64,000 nucleotides of DNA from Desulfosoma sp. GTDB taxonomy: Bacteria > Desulfobacterota > Syntrophobacteria > Syntrophobacterales > DSM-9756. Positions 46,971-64,000 of this stretch are shown piece after piece. Under the pieces are notes generated by a model, which was not told where the DNA came from, did no database searches, and saw only the letters and a program-made list of their open reading frames with translations. The stretch lies in contig JBBFKW010000009.1 of NCBI GenBank assembly GCA_037481835.1, forward strand, positions 1 to 64,000. The letters run 5' to 3'. The position numbers and the translations under genes were made by a program. The first letter of the stretch is position 1, and the number at the start of each line of letters is the position of its first letter.

Positions 46971-46971
46971 G

Positions 46972-48357: not shown

Positions 48358-48476
48358 GGGGTTCTCCTTCGTGCCGCTCCGATCTAGGCCCGCCCTGCGG
48401 GCGAGCGCCTCATCCATCCTTTTCGACAGCGGCCTTCCGCGGCGACGGCGGGCGGGGTCCCGAGGGGGATGGCAAC

Positions 48477-48487
48477 TGGTTTGACCA
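48477..48487. promoter_or_regulatory. Putative FadR/LldR-type operator
   Basis: TGGT-TTG-ACCA palindrome in the divergent intergenic region; second site TGGT-CAA-GCCA at 48617-48627 downstream of TTGACA (48585-48590). Confidence 0.55.
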
Positions 48488-48964
48488 CATGACATGTGAA
48501 CCGCACAAGGTCCGATGGGGCCGTGTCGTTCCGCAGCCTAGCAGGCTCCGTTTCGCTTTTCAAGAACTTTTGTGAACTTTTTCCTTGACACGGTATGGGA
48601 GCCTGTGCCAAGTGTGTGGTCAAGCCATCAGCCGGATTGGGATCCATGGCATAGAATGCGTGTCGGCGTGTGCTCCACTTCCTGCGCCTGGGGCGGGTCC
48701 AGCCCTCGTGTACCGGCCCATGCGGCGGCCCTTCTCCACCGCTGCGGCCCGCCCCTTACTCCCGCTCGCCCTTCCGCCGCACCCCGCGGCCGCGTCGACA
48801 AGGGAATGAATGGGGAAAGGGGGTGAGAGGTGTCCATCGGGGATGGACCCCGGGGCCTCAGGGCGTTTCCAAGTTCCGAGGCGGTCTTTTTCAAGTCTTC
48901 AGGTGCGGCGTGCCGACGGCGCGTCATTTTGGAAAAGGAAAACCGAAGGGAAGGAGAAGATGCC

Positions 48965-50122
48965 ATGAAGCGATACGCAACCGTCATGATGGCCTGTGTG
49001 CTGACCGTTTTTCTCGCCGTGGGTGTGGCCGTGGCGGCCAAGGAACAGCGCGGCAAATTCGCCGAAGACCCGCGTCACGACATGGCCAAGAAGGTGGATT
49101 TCAAGCCGTCCGACAAGACCTTCCGCTGGAAAATGGTCATGCCGTGGACCAAGGGCCTGCTCTTTTACGATATCGCCCAACATTTCGCCGACAGTGTCCG
49201 GTTGGCCTCCGCAGGACGTTTGGACATTAAGGTCTTTTCCGCCGACGAATTGGTCCCCGCCATGCAGACCTTCGATGCCGTCGCCCAGGGAACGGCCGAA
49301 GTCGGCCACGACTGGCCCGGCTACTGGAAGGGGAAAAACGAAGCCTTCGTCGCCTTTGCCTCCGTGCCCTTCGGTCTGGATGCGGAAGGCTATAATATCT
49401 GGCTCTATGAAAAGGGCGGCCTGGCCATGATGCAGGAACTCTACGGCCGATTCGGCCTCCATGCCCTGCCGTGCGGTCAGGTGGGCCAGGAAATGGGGCT
49501 GTTCTCCAACAAGCGCGCGACCAAGATGGAAGATTTCAAAGGCCTGCGCGTGCGGACCCCCGGCTGGTACATGGACATTATGAACATGCTGGGCGCCTCC
49601 GTGAGCCCCCTCCCCGGCGGGGAAGTCTATCTCGCCTTGGAACGCGGCGTCATCGATGCGGCCGAATTTTCTTCGCCGGCCATCAATTATCCCATGGGCT
49701 TTGACGAAGTGACCAAGTATTCCATTCAGCCGGGTGTGCACCAGCCGGGCTGCCAGTGCGCCGTCTTTTTCAACAAGAAGGCGTGGGATGAACTGCCCGA
49801 AGATCTGAAATGGATCGTGCAGATCGCCGCCATGGAAACTCAGCTGTGGAGCTACAACTGGGTGAACGCCCTGAACGCCAAAGCCATCCAGGAATTCAAG
49901 AAGCGCATCGAATTCGTCCGCATGGACACGGACGCCCTGATCCAATTCCGCAAGACGACCAAGCAATACCTGGATTCGCTCAAGGAGAAATACCCGGACG
50001 TGAAAAAGGTCCTGGATTCCCAGGAAGCCTTCATCGAAGAGTATGCCGTGTGGCGTGACGCCCGAAGCGGCGTGGCTGCATGGCCTTATGAAATCTATAT
50101 TTCCGGGCGCGTGACGGAATAA
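48965..50122 (+). CDS. dctP: TRAP transporter substrate-binding protein (TakP/monocarboxylate type)
   Basis: Signal peptide, ASVPFG, GLRVRTPG, GGEVYLALERGVIDAAEF. Confidence 0.9.
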   Translation: MKRYATVMMACVLTVFLAVGVAVAAKEQRGKFAEDPRHDMAKKVDFKPSDKTFRWKMVMPWTKGLLFYDIAQHFADSVRLASAGRLDIKVFSADELVPAMQTFDAVAQGTAEVGHDWPGYWKGKNEAFVAFASVPFGLDAEGYNIWLYEKGGLAMMQELYGRFGLHALPCGQVGQEMGLFSNKRATKMEDFKGLRVRTPGWYMDIMNMLGASVSPLPGGEVYLALERGVIDAAEFSSPAINYPMGFDEVTKYSIQPGVHQPGCQCAVFFNKKAWDELPEDLKWIVQIAAMETQLWSYNWVNALNAKAIQEFKKRIEFVRMDTDALIQFRKTTKQYLDSLKEKYPDVKKVLDSQEAFIEEYAVWRDARSGVAAWPYEIYISGRVTE

Positions 50123-50152
50123 GAAATCGTTGGAGACGTGACAAGAAACCGC

Positions 50153-50184
50153 GGTCTCAGGGGCGCTTCGGCGCCCCTGAGACC
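50153..50184 (+). other. Perfect intercistronic hairpin after dctP
   Basis: GGTCTCAGGGGCGC-TTCG-GCGCCCCTGAGACC (14-bp stem, UUCG loop); likely mRNA stabiliser or partial terminator. Confidence 0.7.
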
Positions 50185-50204
50185 CTTCTGTGGAGATGCC
50201 CGAT

Positions 50205-50705
50205 ATGGCCAACCCCTTCAGCTCCGCCGTGGACGCTTTCATCGACCGCCAGGGGCGGGTGTGTGCGCTGCTCATCCTTCCCCTCAGCGTGGTCGTCATC
50301 TATGAAGTCATCATGCGCTACGTTTTCAACGCCCCCACGATTTGGGGCTTCGAAATGACCACCTTCCTTTACGGCCTCCATTACATGCTGGGCCTGGCCT
50401 ACACCGAACTGTACAACGGGCACGTCAAAGTGGACATCCTCACCGCCCGCATTAAGAAACGGCCCGCCACGATTCTGTCGATCATCACGAGCCTCGTGAT
50501 TTTCGTGCCCATTATGAGCCTCCTCACTTTCTGGACGTGGGCCTTCGCCATCAAGTCCACTCAAATGATGGAAAAGAACGCCACCAGCTGGGCCCCGCCC
50601 ATTTGGCCCATCAAGCTGCTCATGGCCTTGAGCTTTACCTTCCTGTTGCTCCAAGGCCTGTCCAAACTCTTTCGAGACCTGGAATCCTTGAAGAGCGGTT
50701 CCTAA
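50205..50705 (+). CDS. dctQ: TRAP small permease
   Basis: YEVIMRYVFNAPTIW, HVKVD; 4 TM helices. Confidence 0.9.
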   Translation: MANPFSSAVDAFIDRQGRVCALLILPLSVVVIYEVIMRYVFNAPTIWGFEMTTFLYGLHYMLGLAYTELYNGHVKVDILTARIKKRPATILSIITSLVIFVPIMSLLTFWTWAFAIKSTQMMEKNATSWAPPIWPIKLLMALSFTFLLLQGLSKLFRDLESLKSGS

Positions 50706-50729
50706 CCCACAGTGTCGAGGTGATATCCC

Positions 50730-52073
50730 ATGAGTCCAGAAGTCCTCACCGTGGCCATGTTCGGCACCCTGGTGGTGGCCGTAGCCCTCGGCCATCCCCT
50801 GGCTTACACCTTAGCGGGCGTGGCCACCCTTTTCGGGTTGATCGATAACGGGTTCAACGTCCAGATGCTTTTCAACATGTACGCCAACCAATGTTGGGGC
50901 ATCATGGACAATTACGTCCTCGTGGCCATCCCTCTCTTTATCTTCATGGCCCAATTGTTGGATCGGTCCAAGGTGGCCGAAAAGCTCTTCGAGTCCCTTT
51001 ATATCGTTTTGGGCAGTGTGAAGGGCGGCCTGGGTCTGGCCGTCGTCGTCGTGTGCACCGTCTTCGCCGCCACAACGGGCATCATTGGCGCTTCCGTGGT
51101 GGCCATGGGTCTTTTGGCGGCTCCGGCCCTGGTGGAAAAGGGCTACGATAAGGCCATGACCTCGGGCATCATTTGTGCCGCCGGCACCCTGGGCATCCTC
51201 ATTCCGCCCAGCATCATGATGGTCGTCTACGGGGGCTTGACGGGACTCAAGGAAACCTCCGTGGGGAACCTCTTCGCGGGAGCCGTCATTCCGGGGCTCA
51301 TCCTTTCGGGCCTTTATTTTGTGTACATTCTTCTGCGCTGCATTATCAACCCGAAGATGGGGCCTCCCATCAGCAAGGAAGAGGCGGGCCGGTATTCCAG
51401 CGCCCAGAAGTGGGCCATGACCATGAAATCTCTGGTGCCTCCCTTGGCTTTGATCTTCATGGTCATGGGAACGATCCTGGGCGGCGTGGCCACGCCGACG
51501 GAAGCGGCGGGGCTTGGCGCCCTCGGCGCCTTCATCCTCGCGGTGGCCAACCGGCAGCTCACCTGGCGGGTGCTCAAGGAATCGAGCTACGCCACCCTGC
51601 GCACCACGGCCATGGTCATGATGCTCTTTATCGGCGGCAAATTCTTCAGCGCCGTCTTCCTTCGCATGGGCGGCGGGGACGTGGTGGCCGATCTTCTCAT
51701 CGGCTCGGGCCTGAGCAAATGGACCATCGTCTGCATCATGATGCTCATCGTTTTCATAATGGGCATGTTCGTGGACTGGGCGGCCATCCTCTTGGTCACG
51801 GTCCCCATCTTTATGCCCATCGTGCTGGAATTGGAAATCGATCCCTTGTGGTTTTCCATGCTCATGTGCGTGAATCTTCAAACATCCTTCCTCACACCCC
51901 CCTTCGGATACGCCCTGTTCTACTTTGCCGGGGTCGCCCCCAAGGGCTACGACATGATGACGATTTATCGAGGCATTGTGCCTTTCGTCGTTTTGCAGCT
52001 CATCGGGCTTTTTATCATCGCCGTGTTTCCGGCAACGATCACATGGCTGCCCAACCTCTTCTTCGGACGGTAG
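50730..52073 (+). CDS. dctM: TRAP large permease
   Basis: AIPLFIFM, GTLGILIPPS, TPTEAA, LTPPFG. Confidence 0.92.
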   Translation: MSPEVLTVAMFGTLVVAVALGHPLAYTLAGVATLFGLIDNGFNVQMLFNMYANQCWGIMDNYVLVAIPLFIFMAQLLDRSKVAEKLFESLYIVLGSVKGGLGLAVVVVCTVFAATTGIIGASVVAMGLLAAPALVEKGYDKAMTSGIICAAGTLGILIPPSIMMVVYGGLTGLKETSVGNLFAGAVIPGLILSGLYFVYILLRCIINPKMGPPISKEEAGRYSSAQKWAMTMKSLVPPLALIFMVMGTILGGVATPTEAAGLGALGAFILAVANRQLTWRVLKESSYATLRTTAMVMMLFIGGKFFSAVFLRMGGGDVVADLLIGSGLSKWTIVCIMMLIVFIMGMFVDWAAILLVTVPIFMPIVLELEIDPLWFSMLMCVNLQTSFLTPPFGYALFYFAGVAPKGYDMMTIYRGIVPFVVLQLIGLFIIAVFPATITWLPNLFFGR

Positions 52074-52095
52074 GATTGGGCGGGGGAGGCATCCC

Positions 52096-52653
52096 GTGAC
52101 CGACCTGGATCTTGTGGCCCTCATGACGGAAAAAGCGCGGTCGGTGCAGACCGTTGTGGAACAGTGCCCCCACTGGGCCGCCGTGGTGAGATACACTGTG
52201 GAACTTACGGCGGCTCAGGGCGGCCCCACCATCGCCCCATGGGGCCTGCCCGAAGAAGTTCGCGACATGCTCGCCAACGGCGCCTCGGAAAAAGGCCTTC
52301 GCCTTCTCGATCCCCCGTTTCGCGCCTCCCTGGAAGAAATCCACACGGCGATCACCCGCGCCGACTGGGGCATCGCCGAAACGGGCACGGTGGTCCTGGA
52401 TTCCACGGCGGAAGATCTCCGCATCGCCACCATGCTGTCCGAAACCCACGTAATCGTGCTTCCTCAAGGCCGCCTCCGGCGCTCCTCTTTTGACGTGGCT
52501 GAAGCCGTCAAGGCTTGGCATCGGGAGCCTCCCCGCTATGTGGCCTTTATTTCCGGGGCGAGTCGCACAGCGGACATCGAACGGGTTCTGACCATCGGGG
52601 TGCATGGGCCTCAGCACCTGCACCTTCTTATCCTCCAGGAGGGGGCCTCATGA
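52096..52653 (+). CDS. Lactate utilisation protein, LutC/LldG (LUD domain)
   Basis: GIAETGT, ISGASRTADIERVLTIGVHGP. Confidence 0.85.
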   Translation: MTDLDLVALMTEKARSVQTVVEQCPHWAAVVRYTVELTAAQGGPTIAPWGLPEEVRDMLANGASEKGLRLLDPPFRASLEEIHTAITRADWGIAETGTVVLDSTAEDLRIATMLSETHVIVLPQGRLRRSSFDVAEAVKAWHREPPRYVAFISGASRTADIERVLTIGVHGPQHLHLLILQEGAS

Positions 52654-54821
52654 CGACTCAGGCGCCTCAAGACGTGAAAACTTACCGCAGGCAGCTCCGC
52701 CGAGCCCTCGACAACGCCTTTTTGCGTCAGACCCTGGACACTTTCGCGGCGGCGTATCGGGAATCCCGTGCCCGAGCCTTTGAAGGCATCGACCTGGAAG
52801 GGCTCATCGCCGACATCGCCCGCCGGAAAGCTTCGGCGCTGCCGCGGCTGGAAGAGCTTTTTGAGGAATTCAAACGCCGGGCGGAAGCGGCCGGGGCCGT
52901 GGTCCATTCGGCCGCAACGGCCCGGGAAGCTAACGAACTCATTGCCCGGATCGCCAGGGAAAACGGGGTGCGCACGATCATCAAGTCCAAGTCCATGACC
53001 GCCGAAGAAACCTTCCTCAACGCGCACCTGGAAGGGGAAGGCTTTGAGGTGACGGAAACGGACCTGGGCGAATGGATCATTCAGCTGCGCCGCGAAGGCC
53101 CGTCCCACATGGTGCTTCCGGCCATCCACCTGTCCCGCCATCAGGTGGCCGAACTCTTCGAAAAGGTGACCGGGGAGCGACAGGATCCCGACGATATCGA
53201 AAAGATGGTGAAAGTGGCCCGGCGCACCTTGCGCCGAGCCTTCCTGGAAGCGGACATGGGGATTTCCGGGGCGAACTTCGCCGTGGCCGAATCGGGCACC
53301 CTAGGCCTGGTGACCAATGAAGGCAACGCCCGGCTGGTCACCACGCTGCCTCGGGTCCACGTGGCCTTGGTGGGTTACGACAAGCTCCTGCCGGATATGG
53401 AAACCGCTCTGACCATTCTGAAAGCGCTGCCGCGAAACGCCACGGGCCAGATCATTTCCACCTACGTGACCTGGATCACCGGCGCCACGCCCTGTGCGGC
53501 ATCACCCACGGGGCGAAAGATTCTGCACATCATCTTTTTGGATAACGGCCGGCTGCAGCTGGCGAAAGACCCCGTTTTTTCCCAGGCGCTGCAGTGCGTG
53601 CGCTGCGGGGCGTGCGCCAATGTGTGCCCCATCTACCGCCTGGTGGGCGGGCACCATTACGGCCATGTCTACATCGGCGCCATCGGGCTCATCCTCACGG
53701 CCTTCTACCACGGCGTGGAAAACGCCCGCGCCCTGGTCATGAACTGCCTCAACTGCCAGGCCTGCAAAGCGGTCTGCCCCGCTGGGATCGATCTCCCCTA
53801 TCTCATCAAGAACGCCGTGCGCCACGTGCTGGAGCGTGAAAAACGGCGCCCGGTGAAAAACCTGCTCTTGTCCAAGGTGCTCAAGGACCGGAAGCTTTTC
53901 CATTTCCTGCTGCGCCGAGCGGCCCTCGCCCAGAAGCCCTTGGCGGGAAAAGAGCCCCTCATCCGCCATTTGCCGCTCTTTTTCGACAAGACGCACGGGT
54001 TTCGAAGCCTTCCTGTGATCCAAGCCGTGCCTTTTCGGGACCGATGGGAACGGACCCGTCCGCCGGTGGCCGATCCCGCCATGCGGGTCACGTTGTTCGG
54101 CGGCTGCTTGATCGACTTCGTCTATCCGGAGCAGGCGGAAGCAGTGCTTCCGCTTCTTTCGGATCACCGCGTGGCCGTGGACTTCCCCCCGGGCCAAACC
54201 TGCTGCGGCCTTCCGGCGCTCATGGCCGCGGAGAAGGAGACGGCCCGAGATGTGGCCTTGCAGAATCTGCGCGCCGTGGACCTGGACCGCTCCGACTGGA
54301 TCCTGACCCTGTGTGCCTCGTGCGGTTCCCACATGAAGGAAAACTACCCCAAGCTTCTGGGGGACGACCCGGTGTGGGGGGAACGGGTGCGGCGTTTCGC
54401 GGAGAAAGTCATCGATTTCAGCTCGTTTCTCAAAAACGTGTTGAAGGTATCCCCTGAAGATTTCGCCCCGTCGTCGCAAAAGACGGCATACCACGCCCCC
54501 TGTCATCTGTGCCGGGGGTTGAAGGTGGTGGAGGCCCCGCGGGAGCTTCTAAAAACCGCCGGTTGGGATTATGTGCCCACCAAGGACGAAGATGTGTGCT
54601 GCGGCTTCGGGGGATCGTATTCCTTGGAATTTCCGGAAATTTCGGCGGAACTCCTCAAGCGGAAATTGGACCATGTAGAGGCGTCGGGAGCCGACATGCT
54701 GGTGACCGACTGCCCGGGGTGCGTCCTTCAGCTTCGCGGCGGAGCCGACAAGCAGGGCCGCCGTTTCCGGGTCTGCCACATCGCCGAAGCCGTCGCCCGA
54801 ACGTACCGGAAAAGCCGCTAA
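52650..54821 (+). CDS. L-lactate dehydrogenase large subunit (LutB-LutA-like fusion, LldH/LdhH type)
   Basis: KSKSM, ETDLGEWI, PSH..PAIH, NEGN, CVRCGACANVCP, two CCG domains. Confidence 0.88.
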   Translation: MTTQAPQDVKTYRRQLRRALDNAFLRQTLDTFAAAYRESRARAFEGIDLEGLIADIARRKASALPRLEELFEEFKRRAEAAGAVVHSAATAREANELIARIARENGVRTIIKSKSMTAEETFLNAHLEGEGFEVTETDLGEWIIQLRREGPSHMVLPAIHLSRHQVAELFEKVTGERQDPDDIEKMVKVARRTLRRAFLEADMGISGANFAVAESGTLGLVTNEGNARLVTTLPRVHVALVGYDKLLPDMETALTILKALPRNATGQIISTYVTWITGATPCAASPTGRKILHIIFLDNGRLQLAKDPVFSQALQCVRCGACANVCPIYRLVGGHHYGHVYIGAIGLILTAFYHGVENARALVMNCLNCQACKAVCPAGIDLPYLIKNAVRHVLEREKRRPVKNLLLSKVLKDRKLFHFLLRRAALAQKPLAGKEPLIRHLPLFFDKTHGFRSLPVIQAVPFRDRWERTRPPVADPAMRVTLFGGCLIDFVYPEQAEAVLPLLSDHRVAVDFPPGQTCCGLPALMAAEKETARDVALQNLRAVDLDRSDWILTLCASCGSHMKENYPKLLGDDPVWGERVRRFAEKVIDFSSFLKNVLKVSPEDFAPSSQKTAYHAPCHLCRGLKVVEAPRELLKTAGWDYVPTKDEDVCCGFGGSYSLEFPEISAELLKRKLDHVEASGADMLVTDCPGCVLQLRGGADKQGRRFRVCHIAEAVARTYRKSR

Positions 54822-54841
54822 ATTCTCGTGGATCGATCTTG

Positions 54842-54881
54842 GAAGGGGGCAAAGAACGTCAGCCCGGGGCGCAGCCCCGGG
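54842..54881 (-). repeat. REP-like palindromic repeat
   Basis: Minus strand CCCGGGGCTGCGCCCCGGGCTG-N-GCCCCCTTC. Confidence 0.6.
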
Positions 54882-55045
54882 ATCGGGTGCAATCCATCTC
54901 CATCAAATCCTCAGCCCCGGAGAGGCGCAGGACGCCCCGGAATTCGCCAACGCATGGCCGGGACCCGGGGGCGCCCATTGCCTCGTAGATTTCCCCGACC
55001 CGCGCCGACTCATCTCTTGCAACCCCAAAAACGGTCCCTTTACGC

Positions 55046-57040
55046 CTATAATTTCTTAAGGGCCTCGCGGGCTTCTTCGGCCCGCACGTAAATGTGCGGG
55101 GCCACGCCGCGCTTGGCCAAAGCATCTCCCAATTTCATGCGCAGAAAGGCGCTTGTGGTGTATCGCGTGACCCCCGAATAGTAATGGTCCACCAAATACT
55201 TCACCATGTCCGTGTAAGGATCCACCACGTCCGGAAAAATCGTGAAATTGTCATAATTGACGATGGCATAAACCCGGTGTCCCAAGGGCTTGAGAATCTT
55301 CTCCACCGCCTCCCGGATGGTTTCGACTTCTTCCAACGTCTTGACGCTGAACCCTTCGAAATTGACGAAAAAGAGATTCTCCTTTGGATCGTACACGAGC
55401 CGCTCCTCCAACGGCAGGGAAAGGAGATCCGTCTTGAGGTCCATGGGCTCATCCCAAAAGATGCGATCGTCCATGAGGCGCGGTGTGTTTCGGATGATGG
55501 GCGTGAAATCCATGTGGGCCAAGATATCCCGCTCCAGGTCCACGCCGGGGGCGATCTCGATCAATTCCAGCCCTCCCTCGGTCAAGGCGAACACGCACCG
55601 CTCCGTCACATACAGGACGGGTTTCTTGCGACGGCGGGCGTAGGCGCCGCTGAAGGTGACGTGCTCCACCCGATCCACAAACTTTTTCGCCTTTCCCTCT
55701 TGGAGGATGCGCAGCGCGCCGTCCTCCACAATCATCTTTACGCCTCCGGCCGTGAAGGTCCCCATGAAAACCACTTTTTTGGCGCTCTGGCTGATGTTGA
55801 TAAACCCGCCGGCTCCGGCGATCTTCGGCCCGAACTTGCTCACGTTCACATTCCCTTGAGCGTCCGCCTGAGCCATCCCGAGGAACGCGATGTCCAAACC
55901 GCCGCCGTCATAAAAATCGAATTGGGCCGTCTGGTCGATGACCGCGTCGGTGTTGACGGCGGCCCCAAAGTTCAGCCCTCCGGCGGGCATGCCGCCGATG
56001 ACGCCCGGTTCGGCCGTCAGAGTGAGGTATTCCAGGATCTTTTCTTCCACGGCCACGTTGGCCACCCCTTCCGGCATGCCGATCCCCAGGTTCACCACGC
56101 TGTTGGCCTTCAGTTCAAAGGCGGCCCGCCGTGCGATGATTTTCCTTTCGTTCAACGGCATGGGGGGCACGGTAGTCATGGGCACTCGGATCTCGCAGGA
56201 AAACGCCGGGTTGTAGGGTGCGGCGAAGGTCTGCCAATGGTTTTCCGCAGAGGCCACCACGATGCAATCCACCAAGATACCGGGAATCTTGACCTGGCGG
56301 GCGTTCAGGGTGCCACGTTCGGCGATGCGTTCCACCTGGGCGATGACAAAGCCGCCGCTGTTTCGGGCGGCGGTGGCCAAGGAAAGGGTTTCCAAGGTCA
56401 AAGCCTCCCGTTCCATGGTGATGTTGCCGTCGGTGTCCGCCGTCGTTCCCCGGATGATGGCCACATGGATGGGAAAGGTTTTGTAGGCGAGGATCTCTTC
56501 GCCGTCGATGACCATGAGCTCCACCAGGTCTTCTGTGGTAATGTCGTTGAGTTTCCCGCCGCCGTTTCGCGGATCCACAAAAGTGCCGAGCCCCACGGTG
56601 GTGAGGGTTCGTGGCTTCTTTGCAGCGATATCCCGATACATGTGGGTGATGACGCCCTGCGGCAGGTTGTACGCCTCGATCTTGTTCTCCATGGCCAGTC
56701 GCTGCAGCTTGGGCACCAGTCCCCAGTGCCCTCCCACGACGCGCTTCACAAGCCCCTCATGTCCCAAGTGGTTCAACCCCCGTTCTTTGCCGTCGCCTTG
56801 GCCCGCGGCGTAAAAAAGGGTCAGGTCCCGGGGTCTTCCCGTGGTCAGAAACCGTTTTTCCAACGCCACGGCCACCTCCTCGGCAAAACCGATCCCCACG
56901 AACCCCCCCGTGGCCACGGTATCCCCGTCACGGATCACCTGCACGGCCTCCTGGGCGCTGACGATTTTCCCCTTCCGGGTCCTCTGGGGCGGATAGGGAG
57001 AAAGGAAAGGGTGCGTTCCGGAGATGACCTGATCCGTCAT
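55046..57040 (-). CDS. Family I acyl-CoA:acetate/propionate CoA-transferase (Pct/YdiF type) with C-terminal extension
   Basis: [25 protein letters not shown] (catalytic Glu), [20 protein letters not shown]. Confidence 0.9.
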
Positions 57041-57267
57041 GGGAACTCCTCTAACCAGTTGGTCATTTTCCCAAATGTTCGAGCCAAGCGCCTCTTTGAC
57101 GTGAACAAACCCTGGGAGCACGCGGCAAACTGCATGTGGAACGTGTGACCCTACTTCCAAGCTTGCTCAATATCATCGGTGAATACCTACCAAATCGAGG
57201 CCAGGCTTTCAAACGCAAAGGCTTGGCAAACGCTCCGCATACGTCGCCCTCACCGAGACCGTTCCCT

Positions 57268-57879
57268 TTACGGGACTACCCCGTGCTCTTCCAGGAAAAG
57301 ACTCAAGCCCTGGGGGTCCCGGTAGAGGTGGGAGACAATGCCGAGGGAGCGGGCGGCCTCCACGTTTTCCGGCGCATCATCCACAAAGAGGGCCTGAGGG
57401 GGCGCAACATGGAGTCTTTCAAGAGTCGTGATGTAGGCTTGGGGAAAAGGCTTTCGCACCCCCTCTTCGGCGGAACAAAACACCGCGTGGAAAAAGCACA
57501 GGACGTCCCAACGCTCAAGCCATGCCTTCAACCCTTTGGGCGCGTTGGAAAGGACGGCCAGCGGCACACGGCCGTAGAGGCGCCGGATGATGCGGATGAC
57601 GGGCTCGTTGGGCCGCTCGTCCGCATCGTAACGGGCCCGGAAAGCAGCAACGGCTTCCGCACTGCGCAGGTTCAGGCGCGGTCCCATGATCCGCCAGTAA
57701 TCGTCCAGGCTCAAGCGCCCCGTCAAGGTGTCTTCCCAGGCCGGATCGTCGAACATTATCCGGTTGATACTTCCGCGGGGCAGGCCCAAATCCCGTTCGT
57801 AACTTTCAAAGAGCGAAGCCGGCTTGGGGGCGGAAATGACCCGCCCGAAATCGAAAAGAACCGCCCGCGGTGCGCCCAT
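57268..57879 (-). CDS. HAD-family phosphatase (YihX-like)
   Basis: LFDFGRV, LSN, KP, FVDD..ENV. Confidence 0.85.
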   Translation of the reverse strand: MGAPRAVLFDFGRVISAPKPASLFESYERDLGLPRGSINRIMFDDPAWEDTLTGRLSLDDYWRIMGPRLNLRSAEAVAAFRARYDADERPNEPVIRIIRRLYGRVPLAVLSNAPKGLKAWLERWDVLCFFHAVFCSAEEGVRKPFPQAYITTLERLHVAPPQALFVDDAPENVEAARSLGIVSHLYRDPQGLSLFLEEHGVVP

Positions 57880-57959
57880 CGCCTTGTCATCCTTTCCAAC
57901 AAATCTTAATTTCCCCGTTGCCAATACCGAAACGTGAAATCGGCAAGGGGTTCATCGAA

Positions 57960-59438
57960 ATGGACCGAAACTCAGCCCACGGCGTCTCCCGACCCGCCCC
58001 CATGGGATCCCTGGTCCTCATGGGGTCGGGGGAATTGTCTCCCAGCATGGTGGAAGTCCACAAGGCCCTGCTCCACGCCAAAGGGCCGGGCGCTTCCGCC
58101 GTATTTATTGACACGCCCGCCGGATTTCAACCCAACGTGGACGACATTTCCCGGCGCGCGCAAGACTACTTCAGCACTCGAGTGGGCCGGCCCCTGGAGG
58201 TCGCCTCCTTGAAATCCCGCAAGGACATGGAAACCCTTCAGGGACGCCACGCCCTGAAACTCATGGCGTCCGCGGACTACCTCCTCATGGGTCCCGGAAG
58301 CCCCACCTACGCGGCCCGGCAATGGATCGGATCCCCCGTCCCGGAAATCCTTCGATCCCGGATCCACGACGGAGCGGTGGTGGCGGCGGCCAGCGCCGCG
58401 GCCCTCACCGTGGGATGGAAGACGCTTCCCGTCTACGAAATCTACAAGGTGGGCATGGACCTTCACTGGGCGGATGGAATGGATCTCTTAGGCCCGTGGG
58501 GTTTTCGCCTGGTCGTCGTCCCTCATTGGAACAACGCCGAAGGCGGCACGCACGACACGCGCTTTTGCTACATGGGGGAAGAACGCTTCCGGATCCTGGA
58601 ACGCCTTCTTCCCTGGGACGCCATCGTGGTGGGTATCGATGAGCATACGGCCTTGGTTGTGGATTTCGCCCGGAACCGGGCTGAGGTTCGAGGGCTCGGG
58701 ACGGTGACCCTGCGAAAACCGCCAGGGCCTGGATCCCCGATTATGCCCGCTTCGACGGAATCCGGCACGCCGCCGGCTTTATCCTTGGGAGATGCTATCG
58801 CACAGGCCCGCGGGCCGGCTTTATCCGAACGTGTTGGTGAAAAGGGGGCCGTCCCCGGGATGGAAAGAATTTTTCGGACGGGAGAAACGTTTCCCTTGGA
58901 CCTTCTCCGGGATTTTTCCACGGCCGCCGCCCCGACACAGGACCTGAAAGAGCCTTTGGCATCGCCATGGGCGAGGGACGACGAGCCGCCGGCCGGTCGG
59001 GACGAGCCCACTCCAGAACCGGAAGGAAGCGCCGCCCCATCGGAGGAGGATTTCTGGGGCGAAGTGCGGCGGCTGGAATCGGCTTTCGAACAAGGACTGG
59101 AAGATCGTCTCCCTGAGAATGCCGCCCGGGGACTTCTGGAGCTGGACCGCCTTTTGTGGGACGCCCTCCGGCACGGCGCCGCCCCCGAAGACCTGTCCCA
59201 AGGGCGGGAACTTTTCCGAGAATGGATCGTTTTGGCGGCGCAGCGCCTGCCCCTTTCCCCCAGGGACACCCATGCCGTCCTTTCACCTCTGGTGGACGAT
59301 CTCGTCCGGCTGCGAGGGCGCCTTCGTGAAAAGCGTCTGTGGGATGCCGCCGATGCCGTGCGATCCCTGCTTGCTTCCTACGGCGTCGTCGTGGAAGATA
59401 CGCCGACGGGATCTCGGTGGCGCTGGACGCATGAGTGA
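57960..59438 (+). CDS. Peptidase S51/cyanophycinase-like domain fused to a CysRS C-terminal anticodon-binding domain
   Basis: MGSGE, GPGSP, ASAAA (Ser), PHWNN (His), GIDEHT (Glu); C-terminus RGRLREKRLWDAADAVR...GVVVEDTPTGSRW. Confidence 0.8.
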   Translation: MDRNSAHGVSRPAPMGSLVLMGSGELSPSMVEVHKALLHAKGPGASAVFIDTPAGFQPNVDDISRRAQDYFSTRVGRPLEVASLKSRKDMETLQGRHALKLMASADYLLMGPGSPTYAARQWIGSPVPEILRSRIHDGAVVAAASAAALTVGWKTLPVYEIYKVGMDLHWADGMDLLGPWGFRLVVVPHWNNAEGGTHDTRFCYMGEERFRILERLLPWDAIVVGIDEHTALVVDFARNRAEVRGLGTVTLRKPPGPGSPIMPASTESGTPPALSLGDAIAQARGPALSERVGEKGAVPGMERIFRTGETFPLDLLRDFSTAAAPTQDLKEPLASPWARDDEPPAGRDEPTPEPEGSAAPSEEDFWGEVRRLESAFEQGLEDRLPENAARGLLELDRLLWDALRHGAAPEDLSQGRELFREWIVLAAQRLPLSPRDTHAVLSPLVDDLVRLRGRLREKRLWDAADAVRSLLASYGVVVEDTPTGSRWRWTHE

Positions 59439-60453
59439 GGACGCACGGGTGAAGGTGGAAACGGAATCTCTCGCGGTGATGCACGCCGATCGGCTGGATC
59501 CGTTGTGGGGTCTGTGGCACGACCGCCGGGATGTGTTTCGGCGGGCGCCTCTTTTCGTCACGCCGCCGTGGCTCGGCGCCTGGAAAGAAACCCTCGGCCG
59601 GGACGCCGCGCTCAGCGTGCTCATCGCATCAGCCCACGATGCCATCATGGGAGTCCTCCCCCTCATGCGGCAAGGACGCCTCGGCGTTTTCGCCGGAGAT
59701 CCCCAGGTGTGCGACTATTTCGATGCAGTAATGGTTCCCGGCGGCGAAGACGCCGCCTGGCGGGCGTTTTTGCGGGAAGCCCGCCGCTCGGGGCTGGAGG
59801 CCTTGGACCTTTTTCCCGTTCGACCCGATTCCGCCGTCTTGACCCATGGCGTGCCGCTGTGCGAGGCTCTGGGCGTTCCCGTTTCCGTGGAACGTTGCGA
59901 TGTCACGGTGGAAATGCCCCTTGCGGGATCGTGGGAGGCGTATCTTTCGGGCCTTTCGGGAAAACAGCGCCACGAAGTGCGCCGAAAGATGCGCCGTTTG
60001 GAAGAAGCGGGCGCGGTTCGGTTCAGGGCTGTGAGCGATGCCGCCGAAACCGACGGGGCTCTGGAAGTTTTTTTCCGCCTGTTTCAAAGCAACCGGGAAG
60101 ACAAGGCCCGTTTTCTCACCCCCGCCGTGAAGGCCTACATGGAAACCCTGTGCCGGGCCATGAGCCGCGAGGGAATGATGCGCCTGTGCTTTCTCGATGT
60201 GAACGGAACGCCGGCGGCGTCCGCCCTTTGTTTTGATGACGGCGAAACGGTTTCCCTTTATAACAACGGCTACGACGCCTCATTGGCTTCCGTGAGCGTC
60301 GGGCTTGTGAACACCATCCACACCATCAAGGACGCCGTGGAACGGGGTCGCCGCCGCTACGAGTTTTTGCGGGGAGACGAAATTTACAAGTTCCGGCTGG
60401 GAGGTCGTGAAGTTCCCTTGTATCGCGTGCGGATCGCTCTCGAGGCCGGCTGA
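59431..60453 (+). CDS. GNAT/Fem-like acyltransferase (CelD/BcsL, Acetyltransf_6 type)
   Basis: F.TPPW, CDYFD, WEAYL..LS.KQR.E.RRK.RRL, YNNGYD, EFLRGDE.YK.RLG. Confidence 0.8.
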   Translation: MSEDARVKVETESLAVMHADRLDPLWGLWHDRRDVFRRAPLFVTPPWLGAWKETLGRDAALSVLIASAHDAIMGVLPLMRQGRLGVFAGDPQVCDYFDAVMVPGGEDAAWRAFLREARRSGLEALDLFPVRPDSAVLTHGVPLCEALGVPVSVERCDVTVEMPLAGSWEAYLSGLSGKQRHEVRRKMRRLEEAGAVRFRAVSDAAETDGALEVFFRLFQSNREDKARFLTPAVKAYMETLCRAMSREGMMRLCFLDVNGTPAASALCFDDGETVSLYNNGYDASLASVSVGLVNTIHTIKDAVERGRRRYEFLRGDEIYKFRLGGREVPLYRVRIALEAG

Positions 60454-60464
60454 GGCGCCGGCCC

Positions 60465-61853
60465 ATGGATGGAAAATTCATGCGCGAATCGCCCTTTTTT
60501 TTGGACGAGGCCGTAAACCCCGGGAAAACGGCGCCTCGGCTGCGCATCGCCGTGCTCTGCGCCCATTCCCACCCTTTGGGCCCCCTGGGACGGCGGGATA
60601 CGGGCGGCATGAGCGTCTACATCCGGGAAATGTCGCGGGCCGTGGCCGCCCGAGGACACCGGGTGGATCTCTTCGTGGGCGAGCCCCCTCGGGGGCTGGG
60701 TTCCCAAGGGTCTGAATACACCAAACAGGAACTCGAAGACCACCTCGGGCCCAACGTGCACTGGGTGTCTGTCCCTTGCGAAACCGCAGCGCCTCGCGAC
60801 CCGCTTGAACAGGTGAAGACGGCCGAGGCATTCCGGCGAGCTGTCCTTGGCGCGTGCCGGGGAAGGCGCCCTTTCGACCTCGTTTTCAGTCACTACTGGC
60901 TTTCGGGCCTTGCCGGCCTTTACACCGCCCAGGCCCTTGGGGCGCCGCACGTGGTCATGTTCCATACGCTCGCTCAGTCCAAAACGGAGGCTCTGGGCCG
61001 TTCCGTGGACGCCCCGTGCCGTCTCTGTGCGGAAAGGCTCGTGGCCGCTCGAAGCCATGGGGTCGTGGCGGCCACGGAACGGGAAAAGGACGTCCTGGAA
61101 ACGCACTACGGGGTGCATGCGGAACGCGTCGCGGTGGTGCCTTGCGGCGTCGATATGCATGTGTTCCGTCCCGGGGACGGCTTCGGTGCCCGCAAGCGCT
61201 TGGGACTGCCCCTGGATGCGGCGGTCTTCCTCTTCGTCGGCCGTCTCGATCCCGTGAAAGGGTTGGATCGGCTCTTGGACGCCTTTTCCCGCCTGCCCCG
61301 ATCCGTCCCCGCCCGGCTGGTGGTTGTGGGGGGAGACGCCTCGGAAGAGGAACGGCTCAAAGAATTTCGGGACCTGGCAGAAACGCTGGGCGTCTCGAAG
61401 CAGGTCATTTTCTCCGGGCGCATCGACCATTGCCGCCTTCCGGACTTCTATGCCGCCGCCGACGCGCTCGTCGTGGCCTCCCACTACGAAAGCTTCGGCC
61501 TCGTCGCTTTGGAAGCCTTGGCGTCGGGACGGCCCGTCATCGGCCCTCCCGTGGGCGTGCTCCCCGAAGTGCTCTCGTCACCGGTCTGCGGCGTTCTTCT
61601 GGAGGACAACTCGGCACAGCACCTCCTGGGCGGCATGACGATCCTTCTGGAGCGGAAGGGACGGCAGCGGAACGGCGAGGCGGCGCTTCGCCGTAGGATC
61701 GCCCGCCGCTACAGCTGGGATCGGGTCGCCCACGATCTGGAACGATGCTTTCATCGAGTCTTGGAAACATCAACGTGGCATGAAACACGAAGGACTTCTT
61801 CCCATGGATTCGGTCGATGCTCTGATTATCGCTGCGCATCCGGACGACCCTGA
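60465..61853 (+). CDS. GT4 glycosyltransferase, MshA-like
   Basis: H.HPL..LG..DTGGMSVY, SHYWLSG, FHTLA..K, VVPCGVD, VGRLDPVKG, SHYESFGLVALEA. Confidence 0.85.
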   Translation: MDGKFMRESPFFLDEAVNPGKTAPRLRIAVLCAHSHPLGPLGRRDTGGMSVYIREMSRAVAARGHRVDLFVGEPPRGLGSQGSEYTKQELEDHLGPNVHWVSVPCETAAPRDPLEQVKTAEAFRRAVLGACRGRRPFDLVFSHYWLSGLAGLYTAQALGAPHVVMFHTLAQSKTEALGRSVDAPCRLCAERLVAARSHGVVAATEREKDVLETHYGVHAERVAVVPCGVDMHVFRPGDGFGARKRLGLPLDAAVFLFVGRLDPVKGLDRLLDAFSRLPRSVPARLVVVGGDASEEERLKEFRDLAETLGVSKQVIFSGRIDHCRLPDFYAAADALVVASHYESFGLVALEALASGRPVIGPPVGVLPEVLSSPVCGVLLEDNSAQHLLGGMTILLERKGRQRNGEAALRRRIARRYSWDRVAHDLERCFHRVLETSTWHETRRTSSHGFGRCSDYRCASGRP

Positions 61854-62496
61854 ATTCGGCGCTGCAGGCACCGTGGCCGCATGGACTCGGGAAGGTCGAA
61901 GCGTCGCCTACGTCATCTGCACGGACGGAGAAAAGGGAACCAACGACCGTCGTGTGGATCCCAAGGATTTGGCCCGGATCCGCCAAGAGGAACAACGGGC
62001 CGCCGCCGCCGTGCTGGGCGTCCGGGATGTGGTCTTCCTGCATTACCCCGATCAGGGATTGGAAGAGACGCCCGAATTTCGAAAAGAGATCGTGCGCTGG
62101 ATTCGGCGGTACCGACCCCGGATTGTTTTGTCCTCGGACCCGTATCGGCGCTATCTGTGGCACCGCGACCACCGCATCGTGGGGCAGGTCGTCATGGACG
62201 CCCTGTTTCCTTACGCCCGGGACCACCTGGCCTACCCCGACCTCCTGGCGGAAGGGCTGGAACCTCACAAGGTGAAGGAAGTGTGGTTTTGGGCGGCGGA
62301 AGACATCAATCACCGGGTGGACATTTCCGAGACCTTCGATGTGAAGATCGCGGCCCTCCAGTGCCACGCCAGCCAGTGGGACGCTCATCCCGCGCGGGAC
62401 ATCCGCGCGTGGGTGGAAGAGCGGTTCCGGAAAATGGCCGAAGGGACGCCTTACACCTACGCCGAAGGATTCCACCGCGTTCTGCTCCCCGATTGA
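61780..62496 (+). CDS. PIG-L/LmbE N-acetylglucosaminyl deacetylase (MshB/BshB-like)
   Basis: AHPDD, TDGEKG, R..E, HRDH, HASQ, AEGF; start may be 61804. Confidence 0.9.
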   Translation: MKHEGLLPMDSVDALIIAAHPDDPEFGAAGTVAAWTREGRSVAYVICTDGEKGTNDRRVDPKDLARIRQEEQRAAAAVLGVRDVVFLHYPDQGLEETPEFRKEIVRWIRRYRPRIVLSSDPYRRYLWHRDHRIVGQVVMDALFPYARDHLAYPDLLAEGLEPHKVKEVWFWAAEDINHRVDISETFDVKIAALQCHASQWDAHPARDIRAWVEERFRKMAEGTPYTYAEGFHRVLLPD

Positions 62497-62768: not shown

Positions 62769-63431
62769 TTAGGGGGAGAGGGCAGGGTGAGGGGGCGTCC
62801 ACGTGACATCCCCGCAAAGGCCTTCCGGATAGCCTCGACCCACAAACGCCTCATAAGCCGCCCTCTCGTAACCGACGTTGGTGGGCGGCCCATGGCCGGG
62901 AAAGACCAAGACGGCGTCCGGCAACGCAAAGATCTTTTCGGCAAGGGATTGGAGAATCCGCCGGAAGGCTCCAGGCGTTTCCGTGCGGCCAGGACCGTTG
63001 GGGAAAAGCGTGTCCCCGGAAAAGAGGACGCTCCCGAAAAGAAGGCACACGCTTCCCGGCGTGTGCCCGGGGGTGTGCAGGACCCGGAGGCTGAGCGCCC
63101 CTAGGGGAACATCCCGGCCGTCTTCCAGAAAGTCATCGGGCGGCACGGGAAGACGCGGCGCATCCAGGGCATGGGCGAGCACGGGAACGGGTTTTTTTTC
63201 CAGGAAAGCCCGGAGCCCTGCGGTATGGTCTCCATGGCCGTGGGTAAGGACGACCCCTTGGGGCGGCACATCGAACCGAACCCGGGCGACGCCTTCGGGA
63301 GCGTCAATCAAAAGGGCCCGCTGGGTCGCGCGGCACACCACCTGATAGGCATTCACGCCGTAGGGGCCGAGGGTGTATCGAACCACCGCGGCATCCCCCA
63401 AGGACAACACCACCCCGTCTTTCAAAACCAT
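62769..63431 (-). CDS. MBL-fold metallo-hydrolase (glyoxalase II/YcbL-like)
   Basis: THGHGDH, HTPGHTPGS, FSGDTLF, PGHG. Confidence 0.9.
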   Translation of the reverse strand: MVLKDGVVLSLGDAAVVRYTLGPYGVNAYQVVCRATQRALLIDAPEGVARVRFDVPPQGVVLTHGHGDHTAGLRAFLEKKPVPVLAHALDAPRLPVPPDDFLEDGRDVPLGALSLRVLHTPGHTPGSVCLLFGSVLFSGDTLFPNGPGRTETPGAFRRILQSLAEKIFALPDAVLVFPGHGPPTNVGYERAAYEAFVGRGYPEGLCGDVTWTPPHPALSP

Positions 63432-63489
63432 GGCGCCCCTCTCTGTTATTGGGCAAGAGCCCGCATAGGATCGTGACCCCATCACCCCC

Positions 63490-64000
63490 TCAAGCCGTTT
63501 CGGGCAACAAGGGCAGGCCCTCCAACGGGGGCATCAGATCCGCGAGGATCTTTTCCACAGCGTCCGCGATCTCGTTCCGGGCATGGAAAGACACCGTCCC
63601 CGTCTTCCGCACCTTGACCTCGTAAGTCCCCTGTTTCAATCCCCGCTGGCTCACCACCACCCGCACGGGAATGCCCAGAAGGTCGGCGTCCTTGAGCTTC
63701 ACGCCGGGGGATTCGTCACGGTCGTCATAGAGTACGTCCCATCGTGCTCGAAATTCTTGGTACAGGCTTTCCGCCGCCGCATCCACTTCGGGGCTCTTGC
63801 CCAGTGTCGTGAGGATCACCTCAAACGGGGCGATGGTCACCGGCCAGATGATGCCCGCATCGTCGTGCCATTGTTCCACCGCCGAGGCCATGAGCCGTTC
63901 CACGCCGATGCCGTAGCAGCCCATGACCAGTCGGTGGTTGTCGCCGTCGGAGCCAAGGTAGGTCACATCCATGGTGTCGGGCGCCGTGTACTTCGTCCCC
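63490..64000 (-). CDS. proS: Prolyl-tRNA synthetase, 3' part (gene starts beyond the window)
   Basis: [14 protein letters not shown] (motif 3), [26 protein letters not shown]. Confidence 0.93.

Follow-up and report, generated by a model that had tools for sequence, protein, structure and literature searches.

Why would a protein carry the fold of a serine hydrolase at one end and the anticodon-arm module of cysteinyl-tRNA synthetase (CysRS) at the other? The question is raised by a gene at positions 57960..59438 (+ strand) of a stretch of 64,000 nucleotides (nt) from Desulfosoma sp. (assembly GCA_037481835.1, contig JBBFKW010000009.1, positions 1 to 64,000), referred to below as the window; coordinates given without a locus name are window positions. 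The gene, identified from its open reading frame (ORF) and translation, encodes an S51-DALR_2-CysS_C protein of 492 amino acids (aa), here called the S51-CysS_C protein. It is a predicted two-module enzyme in which an S51-type hydrolase domain is joined to the CysRS anticodon-arm module, with no synthetase core. The gene heads a conserved sugar-pathway operon that resembles mycothiol synthesis, and the product of this operon may be an undescribed protective thiol.

Domain architecture of the S51-CysS_C protein

The reading frame is open from 57870 to 59438 (+), and translation from the ATG at 57960 gives the 492-residue product. A Shine-Dalgarno-like AAGGGG lies 9 nt 5' of this ATG and none lies ahead of the next ATG, at 58002, from which one database copy of the protein (478 aa) starts. 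An AlphaFold model was built from an alignment of 37 S51-CysS_C homologues (alignment A1), with a mean predicted local distance difference test (pLDDT) score of 81.2 and a predicted template modelling (pTM) score of 0.66. The model comprises an alpha/beta domain (residues 15-252, with two strands at 302-312), a series of helices (362-457) and a small alpha/beta unit (461-489), with disorder at residues 253-300 and 318-360. A preliminary description of the gene, made from the sequence alone, had placed a Pro-rich linker and a helical region after the hydrolase domain, and the model bears this out. The first disordered stretch (58716-58859, +) is an insertion particular to the S51-CysS_C protein and its closest relatives and is not present in most of the A1 homologues. 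The second (58911..59039, +) is an acidic, Pro-rich linker, with pLDDT below 50 at residues 332-358, that varies in both sequence and length across A1.

The S51-type hydrolase domain spans residues 15-317 (58002..58910, +). Its best sequence match among solved structures is the S51-like peptidase 6nqc from acI-B1 actinobacteria (E = 8.7e-7, residues 15-247). Foldseek returned S51 structures at E-values from 1e-13 to 1e-9 (1.3e-13 for 6nqc, about 1e-10 for PepE and cyanophycinase), and VIA-align gave Z-scores of 26.5 for 6nqc (root-mean-square deviation (rmsd) 2.9, 237 residues aligned), 23.4-24.4 for cyanophycinase (3en0, 23.4) and 19.7-21.5 for PepE (6a4r, 19.7). The N-terminal domain thus has the S51 alpha/beta fold by both methods, at 12-24% (VIA-align) or 15-23% (Foldseek) identity to S51 peptidases.

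Ser-His-Glu is the catalytic triad of the S51 family. The preliminary description had read this triad from the motifs ASAAA, PHW and GIDE, and all three residues are present and match those of 6nqc. Ser145, the predicted nucleophile (motif ASAAA; codon 58392..58394, +), aligns with the Ser of GCSAGA; His189 (motif PHWNN; 58524..58526, +) aligns with the His of PHF; and Glu228 (motif GIDEH; 58641..58643, +) aligns with the Glu of GIDE. The fold and the position of the triad are therefore shared with the S51 peptidases PepE, CphB and 6NQC, from which the S51-CysS_C protein differs in an extra 8-residue loop, in the fused tRNA-type module and in its sugar-biosynthesis context. After His189, the loop AEGGTHDTRFC is invariant in A1 and is modelled with pLDDT below 50 at residues 195-202; the 8-residue insertion lies within PHWNNAEGGTHDTRFC, after the catalytic His, and has no counterpart in 6nqc. 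Being invariant in A1, absent from 6nqc and disordered in the model, this loop suggests a family-specific substrate-binding element.

The C-terminal part begins with a four-helix bundle (residues 361-457; 59040..59330, +), with helices at residues 362-381, 385-404, 409-428 and 434-457, which the model and VIA-align identify as the counterpart of the DALR_2/helical bundle of CysRS. A CysS_C anticodon-binding domain (Pfam PF23493; residues 441-488; 59280..59423, +) scores 26.2 bits against a cut-off of 23. HMMER aligns residues 445-488 with residues 416-459 of E. coli CysRS (1li5/1u0b), and R452 (codon at 59313), R456, W461, D465, R468 and D480 fall on R423, R427, W432, D436, R439 and D451, respectively. 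These are the positions named in the preliminary description from the spacing R, +4, +9, +13, +16 and +28, which is exact, and the domain scan and alignment that it had proposed as a check place CysS_C above the cut-off with all six residues matched. R423 and D451 of the E. coli enzyme presumably also have roles at the anticodon. The residues of 1U0B given as contacting the anticodon in a 2026 paper are Arg427, Trp432, Asp436 and Arg439, with Arg427 named as the partner of G34 (PMC13449415).

The 3.63 Mb genome was translated in six frames (7.26 million residues) and searched for the pattern R-x3-R-x4-[WFY]-x3-D-x2-R-x11-D. Because it has five matches genome-wide, and the three that lie in long ORFs are the housekeeping CysRS, a CysK-pseudo-CysRS fusion (described below) and the S51-CysS_C ORF, the spacing in the last is not a coincidence. 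VIA-align matched model residues 366-490 to residues 332-461 of the CysRS-tRNA-Cys complex (1u0b_B; Z 9.1, 118 residues aligned), and Foldseek on the tail found the same chain (E = 1.1e-3, 130 columns). A structure search of the ESM Atlas with residues 361-490 returned clusters in which the aligned part is named DALR_2 and which also carry CysS_C. The CysS_C domain is 41% identical over 44 residues to the genome's own CysRS, and a BLASTP alignment to the CysK-pseudo-CysRS spans residues 381-487. The view that the C-terminal 130 residues form a complete CysRS tRNA-anticodon-arm module (DALR_2-like bundle plus CysS_C) is supported by these comparisons with the model.

CysRS (1U0B) therefore shares with the S51-CysS_C protein the fold of residues 366-490, the CysS_C domain and the six anticodon-region residues, and its aromatic position is W, F or Y, as in the S51-CysS_C family (the genome's own CysRS has F). 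In contrast, the Rossmann core, the HIGH and KMSKS motifs and the zinc site of CysRS are missing from the S51-CysS_C protein, where the CysRS-type module sits on a long disordered linker and is joined to an unrelated hydrolase fold. The preliminary description was right that the synthetase core is lacking, since Pfam tRNA-synt_1e (the HIGH/KMSKS core) has no match in the protein at E-values up to 1 and TIGR00435 (cysS) is confined to residues 444-488, at 19.2 bits against a cut-off of 340. The five matches to TIGR03447 (MshC) in the genome are all below the cut-off, and the S51-CysS_C ORF is not among them. From its sequence, the protein is predicted to be unable to activate cysteine with ATP.

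The module also occurs in other settings. Free-standing DALR_2 plus CysS_C proteins of 117-176 aa are found in the ESM Atlas in Actinomycetota, Pseudomonadota and Chloroflexota. At another locus (L106 8058-9170, +; G068:C2), a 370-aa member of the family has S51 and CysS_C with most of the helical bundle gone, which indicates that the bundle is dispensable in at least one lineage.

Family size and residue conservation

Homologues of the S51-CysS_C protein in its length class number at least 7980, as 7980 of 8000 scored candidates pass E 1e-3. Clustering at 50% identity leaves 1495 representatives at E 1e-3, 842 at 1e-10 and 418 at 1e-30, and relatives are present in the genomes of at least 589 species. 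Judging from record titles, carriers include Desulfobacterota-type bacteria, Nitrospirota, Nitrospinaceae, Aminicenantaceae and Deferrisomatales; the cultured species Desulfosoma caldarium and Desulfacinum hydrothermale are among them. Relatives are publicly named 'hypothetical protein', 'peptidase E', 'cyanophycinase-like exopeptidase', 'Peptidase S51-like', 'Type 1 glutamine amidotransferase-like domain-containing protein' or 'Cysteinyl-tRNA ligase anticodon binding domain-containing protein'. The suspicion that the protein may be mis-annotated as a CysRS was not borne out, as CysRS is not among the public names of the relatives examined.

Ser145, His189, Glu228 and the six tail residues are all invariant in A1 (37/37). 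For a wider set we used 151 cluster representatives, from which the 32 shorter than 380 aa were removed; the remaining 119 are 32-64% identical to the query (median 38%). Among these, the triad is kept in 118 (S145), 119 (H189) and 116 (E228), and the tail residues are kept in 114 (R452), 110 (R456, with three further K), 113 (W, F or Y at 461), 112 (D465), 115 (R468) and 111 (D480). Lack of conservation among orthologues had been named beforehand as an observation that would count against the tRNA-binding idea; instead, each of the nine residues is retained by 110-119 of the 119 representatives, which are diverse. Retention of the anticodon-contact residues by 110-115 of the 119, across 32-64% identity, indicates that they are under selection.

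Fused relatives of 862-2460 aa were not found at E 1e-10 or better, although this is weak evidence. Ten representatives of unusual length contain S51 and/or CysS_C only, or no domain. Two apparent overlaps of the S51 gene with the Fem-type gene described below (L076 and L045) were considered as fusions and turned out to be separate ORFs.

The operon around the gene

The gene immediately downstream (59431..60453, +) encodes a Fem-type tandem-GNAT transferase of 340 aa ('GNAT6'), identified by Pfam, structure model and VIA-align. Its ATG overlaps the stop codon of the S51-CysS_C gene by 8 nt, and the two genes are regarded, from their sequence, as translationally coupled. The protein matches Pfam Acetyltransf_6 at 119 bits and FemAB_like at 21.7 bits, under the cut-off of 27; its profile had no match among PDB sequences. 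A model built from 21 orthologues (alignment A2; pLDDT 92) was compared with solved structures by VIA-align, giving Z-scores of 22.2 for FemA, 22.0 for FemX, 21.0-21.4 for Sbb17/Sba18 and 17.7-19.4 for MprF-type aminoacyl-phosphatidylglycerol synthases. Except for 2hqy, whose function is unknown, the top 23 matches (Z 17.7-22.2) are all aminoacyl-tRNA-dependent transferases, and tandem GNATs that use acetyl-CoA reach at most 14.9 (MshD, 14.8 and 13.5) with far larger rmsd. The Fem-type protein is therefore closer in fold to users of aminoacyl-tRNA than to users of acyl-CoA. Sba18 and Sbb17 are described as 'aminoacyl-tRNA-dependent peptide synthases' and were deposited with the amino-sugar ligand streptothrisamine. 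We had considered an MshD-type acetyltransferase for this neighbour and rejected it, because the structure favours FemA, FemX and Sbb17 over MshD.

Next is a gene for an MshA-like GT4 glycosyltransferase (60465..61853, +; Pfam Glycos_transf_1 and Glyco_transf_4), whose top NCBIfam model is TIGR03449 mycothiol_MshA (245.8 bits against an equivalog cut-off of 462.5). Its nearest solved relatives are 3c48 and 3c4q (E = 3e-48, full length), which we take to be C. glutamicum MshA. It is followed by a gene for a BshB/MshB-like de-N-acetylase of the PIG-L/LmbE family (61780..62496, +; Pfam PIG-L, 119.7 bits). The top NCBIfam model of this protein is thiol_BshB1 (118.1 bits against 182.5), MshB scores 48.7 against 224.35, and its relatives in the PDB are LnmX, chitobiose deacetylases and BshB 6p2t (1.8e-15). 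On the other side of the S51-CysS_C gene, a divergent gene (57268..57924, -) encodes a HAD-family phosphatase (Pfam Hydrolase and HAD_2; NCBIfam HAD-IA subfamily), which is a candidate for a sugar-phosphate phosphatase step. Beyond the PIG-L gene lies a gene for a GloB-like hydrolase of the metallo-beta-lactamase (MBL) fold (62769..63485, -; Pfam Lactamase_B). Its best model is TIGR03413, hydroxyacylglutathione hydrolase (77.5 bits against a cut-off of 200.8), and such a neighbour hints at a thiol cofactor.

To describe how far this arrangement is conserved, we examined 80 related loci in named public genomes; at least 7.5 kb of downstream sequence is available for 48 of them. On the same strand downstream, the Fem-type gene is present in 35 of these 48 loci, GT4 in 37 and PIG-L in 32; all three genes are present in 31, some of them in 7 and none in 10. 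The loci without the operon have varied, unrelated neighbours and no alternative conserved set. Four of five genomes of this no-neighbour kind have a Fem-type gene elsewhere, as do five of five further genomes. Unbiased clustering of 900 ORFs within 7 kb of the gene at 84 loci recovered GT4 (50 loci), Fem-type (42), PIG-L (30) and GFO/IDH/MocA oxidoreductases (26) as recurring neighbours, plus two minor clusters in 10-11 loci, of which one is the MBL hydrolase and the other is unannotated. No cyanophycin or peptide-transport genes recurred in this clustering. With tblastn, homologues of the HAD protein were found in the fetched flanks of 11 of the 80 loci, and of the MBL hydrolase near the gene in 13 (one of them weak).

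The distance from the S51-CysS_C gene to the Fem-type gene is bimodal, being less than about 630 nt in 19 loci and 2.6-3.3 kb in 16. At one locus (L060 11160-13950, +), the long gap is filled by two tandem GFO/IDH/MocA oxidoreductase genes; at another (L024), the first of these oxidoreductases has a weak ThuA-like N-terminal part. The GFO/IDH/MocA family includes inositol dehydrogenases, and the pair, which is present at 26 of 84 loci and not in the operon of the window, may remodel a polyol or sugar. Fem-type and GT4 are fused at L103 (8144-10261, +; 705 aa) and in a second genome (G022:C1:2745235-2746122; open frame of 711 aa), fusions that can be read as a Rosetta-stone link between the two steps.

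A proposed route for cysteine from tRNA to an amino sugar

It is very probable that the S51-CysS_C protein binds tRNA-Cys, and we hold with similar confidence that it acts in the amino-sugar (thiol-like) pathway of its operon, both judgements being well supported by computation. Our favoured reading, to which we give a probability of about 0.45, is that the protein itself transfers cysteine from Cys-tRNA(Cys), by way of an acyl-enzyme at Ser145, as part of a pathway resembling that of mycothiol. Computation shows the identity of the domains, the conservation of the residues and of the operon, and the absence of BshC and MshC; that the protein binds tRNA, forms an acyl-enzyme and uses such an acceptor, and what product results, is inferred. 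The DALR_2-like bundle and CysS_C would dock on the anticodon arm of tRNA-Cys and read GCA, and the flexible linker (at least 40 residues) would allow the S51-type domain to reach the acceptor end. Ser145, activated by His189 and Glu228, would attack the aminoacyl ester of Cys-tRNA(Cys), leaving a cysteinyl-O-Ser enzyme and freeing the tRNA, and the cysteinyl group would then pass by aminolysis to the amine of the operon's amino-sugar intermediate. The MshA-like GT4 would link GlcNAc glycosidically to a phosphorylated polyol, for which inositol phosphate is the probable candidate; the HAD enzyme would take off the phosphate, and the PIG-L enzyme would free the sugar amine. The other acylation that draws on aminoacyl-tRNA would fall to the Fem-type enzyme. 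The pathway would yield a thiol that carries cysteine and resembles mycothiol or bacillithiol, made without an ATP-dependent ligase of the MshC/BshC type, with the activation energy supplied by the housekeeping CysRS.

The preliminary description had suggested that the protein either transfers Cys through a Ser acyl-enzyme to an amino sugar or is a new trans-editing deacylase. Its observations as a whole are confirmed, and its interpretation is partly supported: the conserved operon of MshA-like GT4 and PIG-L deacetylase fits the idea that Cys is passed to an amino sugar. A module specific for tRNA-Cys is most readily understood as part of an enzyme that uses Cys-tRNA(Cys) as its substrate, and the conservation of the triad on a par with the tRNA-reading residues also counts in favour of a transferase. 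Each half of the proposed chemistry has a precedent, in that S51 peptidase E forms an aspartyl-Ser ester with a free alpha-amine and cyclodipeptide synthases load an aminoacyl group from aminoacyl-tRNA onto a Ser. A wider proposal is more doubtful and is put forward tentatively. It holds that these proteins are a new class of S51 (GATase-1-like) serine enzymes with a CysRS reader, which carry Cys as a covalent Ser ester and build a thiol with the Fem-type enzyme, and that in thermophilic/anaerobic Desulfobacterota, Nitrospirota and other phyla they replace the ATP-dependent MshC/BshC step.

Among known systems, the closest in gene content are the pathways for mycothiol (Ino1, MshA, MshA2, MshB, MshC, MshD) and bacillithiol (BshA/BshB/BshC), with which the operon shares an MshA-like GT4, a PIG-L enzyme and a HAD phosphatase. 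The second acyltransferase of the mycothiol pathway is of the MshD type, whereas that of the operon is Fem-type. MshC and the S51-CysS_C protein are both partly derived from CysRS in sequence. MshC retains the CysRS catalytic core without the anticodon domain, and the S51-CysS_C protein is its exact opposite, with the anticodon module kept and the catalytic core gone. Fem-type transferases (FemX/FemA, MprF, Sba18/Sbb17) are the known route by which an amino acid carried on tRNA reaches an amine or hydroxyl. This is the same kind of reaction as that proposed here, but the GNAT fold is not shared, and we know of no anticodon reading and no covalent Ser intermediate in Fem enzymes. The trans-editing deacylase YbaK hydrolyses a cysteinyl-tRNA with another fold and is not known to have an anticodon-binding domain. 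In cyclodipeptide synthases, a Ser takes the aminoacyl group from aminoacyl-tRNA as we propose for Ser145, on a fold that differs from S51. Cyclodipeptide synthases have a ping-pong mechanism and a class-I aminoacyl-tRNA synthetase-like fold, and require no more of the tRNA than its acceptor arm (PMC7672478). Neither the cyclodipeptide synthase fold nor that of YbaK was among the fold-search matches listed for the S51-CysS_C protein.

Observations against the proposal and rival explanations

Several observations weigh against the favoured reading. Pfam Peptidase_S51 (PF03575) scores 16.4 bits at residues 18-235, under its cut-off of 23.9. The alignment to 1u0b_B has an rmsd of 16.1 A, and a value of about 16 A indicates that the two C-terminal sub-domains match singly while their mutual orientation differs from that in 1u0b. 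GT4 and PIG-L are under the MshA and BshB equivalog cut-offs and are thus family-level relatives only. The Fem-type neighbour, structurally of the Fem/MprF/Sba18 type, could add Cys alone. The distribution of the genes points in the same direction. We searched 151 genomes of the phylum (E 1e-40 for S51-CysS_C, E 1e-30 for Fem-type; the genomes are kin and not independent) and found S51-CysS_C in 19 and Fem-type in 29, with both in 16, S51-CysS_C alone in 3 and Fem-type alone in 13. Two of the three S51-only genomes are from one genus, with 94% completeness, and the genus of the third has three other members with both genes. Fem-type/GT4 clusters (with or without PIG-L and the MBL hydrolase) also exist without any S51-CysS_C gene, and nothing recognisable takes the place of the S51 gene at the Fem-type-only loci. 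Because such clusters are found without it, the S51 protein looks dependent on the Fem-type module and not vice versa. Three scenarios fit this dependence: an older pathway has gained a second, Cys-specific acylation step, the protein has an accessory role, or it has taken the place of another ligase by non-orthologous replacement.

An accessory role could take the form of a gatekeeper: the Fem-type enzyme would move Cys from Cys-tRNA(Cys) to the sugar amine, and the S51-CysS_C protein would select or deliver tRNA-Cys by binding the anticodon arm, which Fem enzymes and EF-Tu leave untouched. The triad would then serve a side reaction, such as hydrolysing mischarged tRNA-Cys or trimming an over-acylated product. 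The translational coupling of the two genes, the aminoacyl-tRNA-dependent enzymes among the best folds of the Fem-type protein (Z 17.7-22.2, against at most 14.9 for tandem GNATs that use acetyl-CoA, MshD included) and the lopsided co-occurrence (S51-CysS_C without Fem-type in 3 of 19 genomes, Fem-type without S51-CysS_C in 13 of 29) all agree with such a division of labour. A pure adaptor, however, would have no need to preserve the triad, as 116-119 of 119 relatives do, or a family-specific loop that is invariant beside the catalytic His. No fusion of the S51 and Fem-type proteins was found, and we know of no mischarged tRNA-Cys species in these bacteria; we regard a gatekeeper as unlikely, though it is the main rival. 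The dependence on the Fem-type/GT4 module would also suit an enzyme that acts on the pathway product. S51 enzymes are exopeptidases that act on an aminoacyl residue with a free amine, and the S51 domain might be an amidase that frees Cys from a Cys-amino-sugar store, with the CysRS tail sensing cysteine supply through tRNA-Cys and switching the amidase. This is improbable: the gene stands at the head of a biosynthetic operon to which it is coupled, an unusual place for a catabolic enzyme, and to our knowledge an anticodon-binding domain has no precedent as the allosteric sensor of a peptidase.

Two further explanations give the protein no chemical role in the sugar pathway. It might act on its own, as a trans-editing or regulatory deacylase that hydrolyses Cys- or mis-acylated tRNA-Cys. 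Coupling a hydrolase fold to an anticodon-binding module recalls the logic of synthetase editing domains; one example is a ThrRS editing domain, possibly active on tRNA-Cys, that is joined to SepRS (PMC8762117). The 10 of 48 loci without any pathway gene downstream would also fit such a role. The second suggestion of the preliminary description is nevertheless the less likely of its two, because the gene belongs to a biosynthetic operon that is conserved across several phyla and to which its translation is coupled. The family is also patchily distributed, with the gene in 19 of the 151 genomes and, in a second phylum sample (centre G156), in 1 of 101, the centre only; this is unlike a translation quality-control factor. 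Removing correct Cys from its tRNA would, moreover, be wasteful, and overall we consider this explanation highly improbable. Known editing-domain folds (YbaK/ProX, AlaX, DTD) were not among the fold-search matches listed, in which the catalytic domain is clearly S51; a family that is not listed is not excluded by this. Lower still we place an ordinary S51 dipeptidase or cyanophycinase-like enzyme whose CysS_C tail is a leftover or binds something other than tRNA. The public names peptidase E and cyanophycinase-like agree with it, as do the free-standing DALR_2 plus CysS_C proteins, which indicate that the module may have other uses. The anticodon-contact residues are, however, kept as a selected feature would be, the cyanophycinase model (NCBIfam TIGR02069) gives the protein 24 bits against a cut-off of 126.6, and neither cyanophycin nor peptide-transport genes recur alongside.

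As to what the operon makes, an aminoacylated glucosaminyl lipid would combine the MprF-like fold with the PIG-L family. It is less likely than a thiol, because the GT4 is nearest to MshA and a sucrose-phosphate-synthase-like enzyme and because a HAD phosphatase is present.

Should the transfer of cysteine by the S51-CysS_C protein be correct, the few proteins known to draw charged tRNA away from translation would gain a new fold, and sugar-thiol biosynthesis would have a second, tRNA-dependent answer to cysteine ligation. It would also point to the identity of the low-molecular-weight thiol in sulfate reducers and other anaerobes, and provide a natural, compact tRNA-Cys-specific module tethered to a catalytic domain that is of interest for tRNA-directed enzyme design. 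Low-molecular-weight thiols are called understudied in anaerobic bacteria in PMC9874932. We found no publication on the S51-CysS_C family in the open literature (non-open papers and bioRxiv supplements being outside the coverage), and nothing relevant there on mycothiol in Desulfobacterota or on Cys-tRNA with mycothiol in anaerobes. A 2026 review of aminoacyl-tRNA-dependent enzymes has no mention of S51, cyanophycinase, anticodon or mycothiol (PMC12945691), and a review of cysteine-encoding systems has none of peptidase or mycothiol (PMC8762117). The question is directly testable, since Desulfosoma caldarium and Desulfacinum hydrothermale are cultured carriers of the gene.

Thiol and cysteine genes elsewhere in the genome

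The genome of the window is 99.4% complete and has one bona fide cysS (583 bits). It encodes an inositol-1-phosphate synthase (Ino1) away from the operon. BshC was not found in the genome and, as noted above, nothing scores above the MshC cut-off. An E. coli-type GshA was not found either; a GSH-S_ATP match is weak (30.7 bits), and the control for this family also matches organisms without glutathione.

The CysK-pseudo-CysRS is a 777-aa fusion of PALP, tRNA-synt_1e, DALR_2 and CysS_C domains (L002 562-2895, +; G000:C1, about 175078-177411). An alignment with genuine CysRS shows other residues in place of HIGH, KMSKS and the zinc ligands, which makes ligase activity unlikely; binding of tRNA-Cys is probably retained. 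A second cysS-like copy with an open frame of about 740-830 aa is widespread in the phylum and in some cases exceeds the cut-off for cysS. A single cysS-like gene is present in 13 of the 19 genomes with an S51-CysS_C gene. Two or more copies are present in 8 of the 13 Fem-type-only genomes versus 6 of the 19 with the S51 gene, and are also common where neither gene is present.

Other features of the window and the tRNA complement

An ORF that encodes a class-II synthetase HGTP_anticodon domain (63490-63999, -) runs off the end of the window; it is the 3' portion of a further aminoacyl-tRNA synthetase gene, lying just past the operon. The upstream region (45669-57160) is devoted to energy metabolism and appears unrelated to the operon. 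It encodes a CoA-transferase of 704 aa (55046-57160, -), a protein with LUD, 4Fe-4S and CCG domains (52515-54821, +), an FAD-linked oxidase (46972-48495, -) and a CCG/4Fe-4S protein (45669-47486, -). The last two overlap in different frames of the minus strand, and one of these calls may be spurious or mis-started.

No Rfam family reaches its gathering score between 54500 and 64000, and the window contains no tRNA genes. The genome has 46 tRNA genes, with most anticodons represented by a single copy. Beside the normal tRNA-Sec(TCA) and a 75-nt tRNA-Cys, there is a second tRNA with a GCA (Cys) anticodon, 92 nt in length (L115 7235-7326, -; G000:C21), which matches Rfam tRNA-Sec at 53.1 bits against a gathering score of 47. 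It resembles the tRNASec-like tRNA-Cys reported from Deltaproteobacteria. A phylum-wide search with RF01852 gave 3-18 matches per genome, ordinary tRNAs included. The 92-nt tRNA lies about 1.1 kb upstream of a gene for a SelB-like elongation factor (L115 4149-6113, -) with GTP_EFTU, SelB beta-barrel and SelB wing domains.

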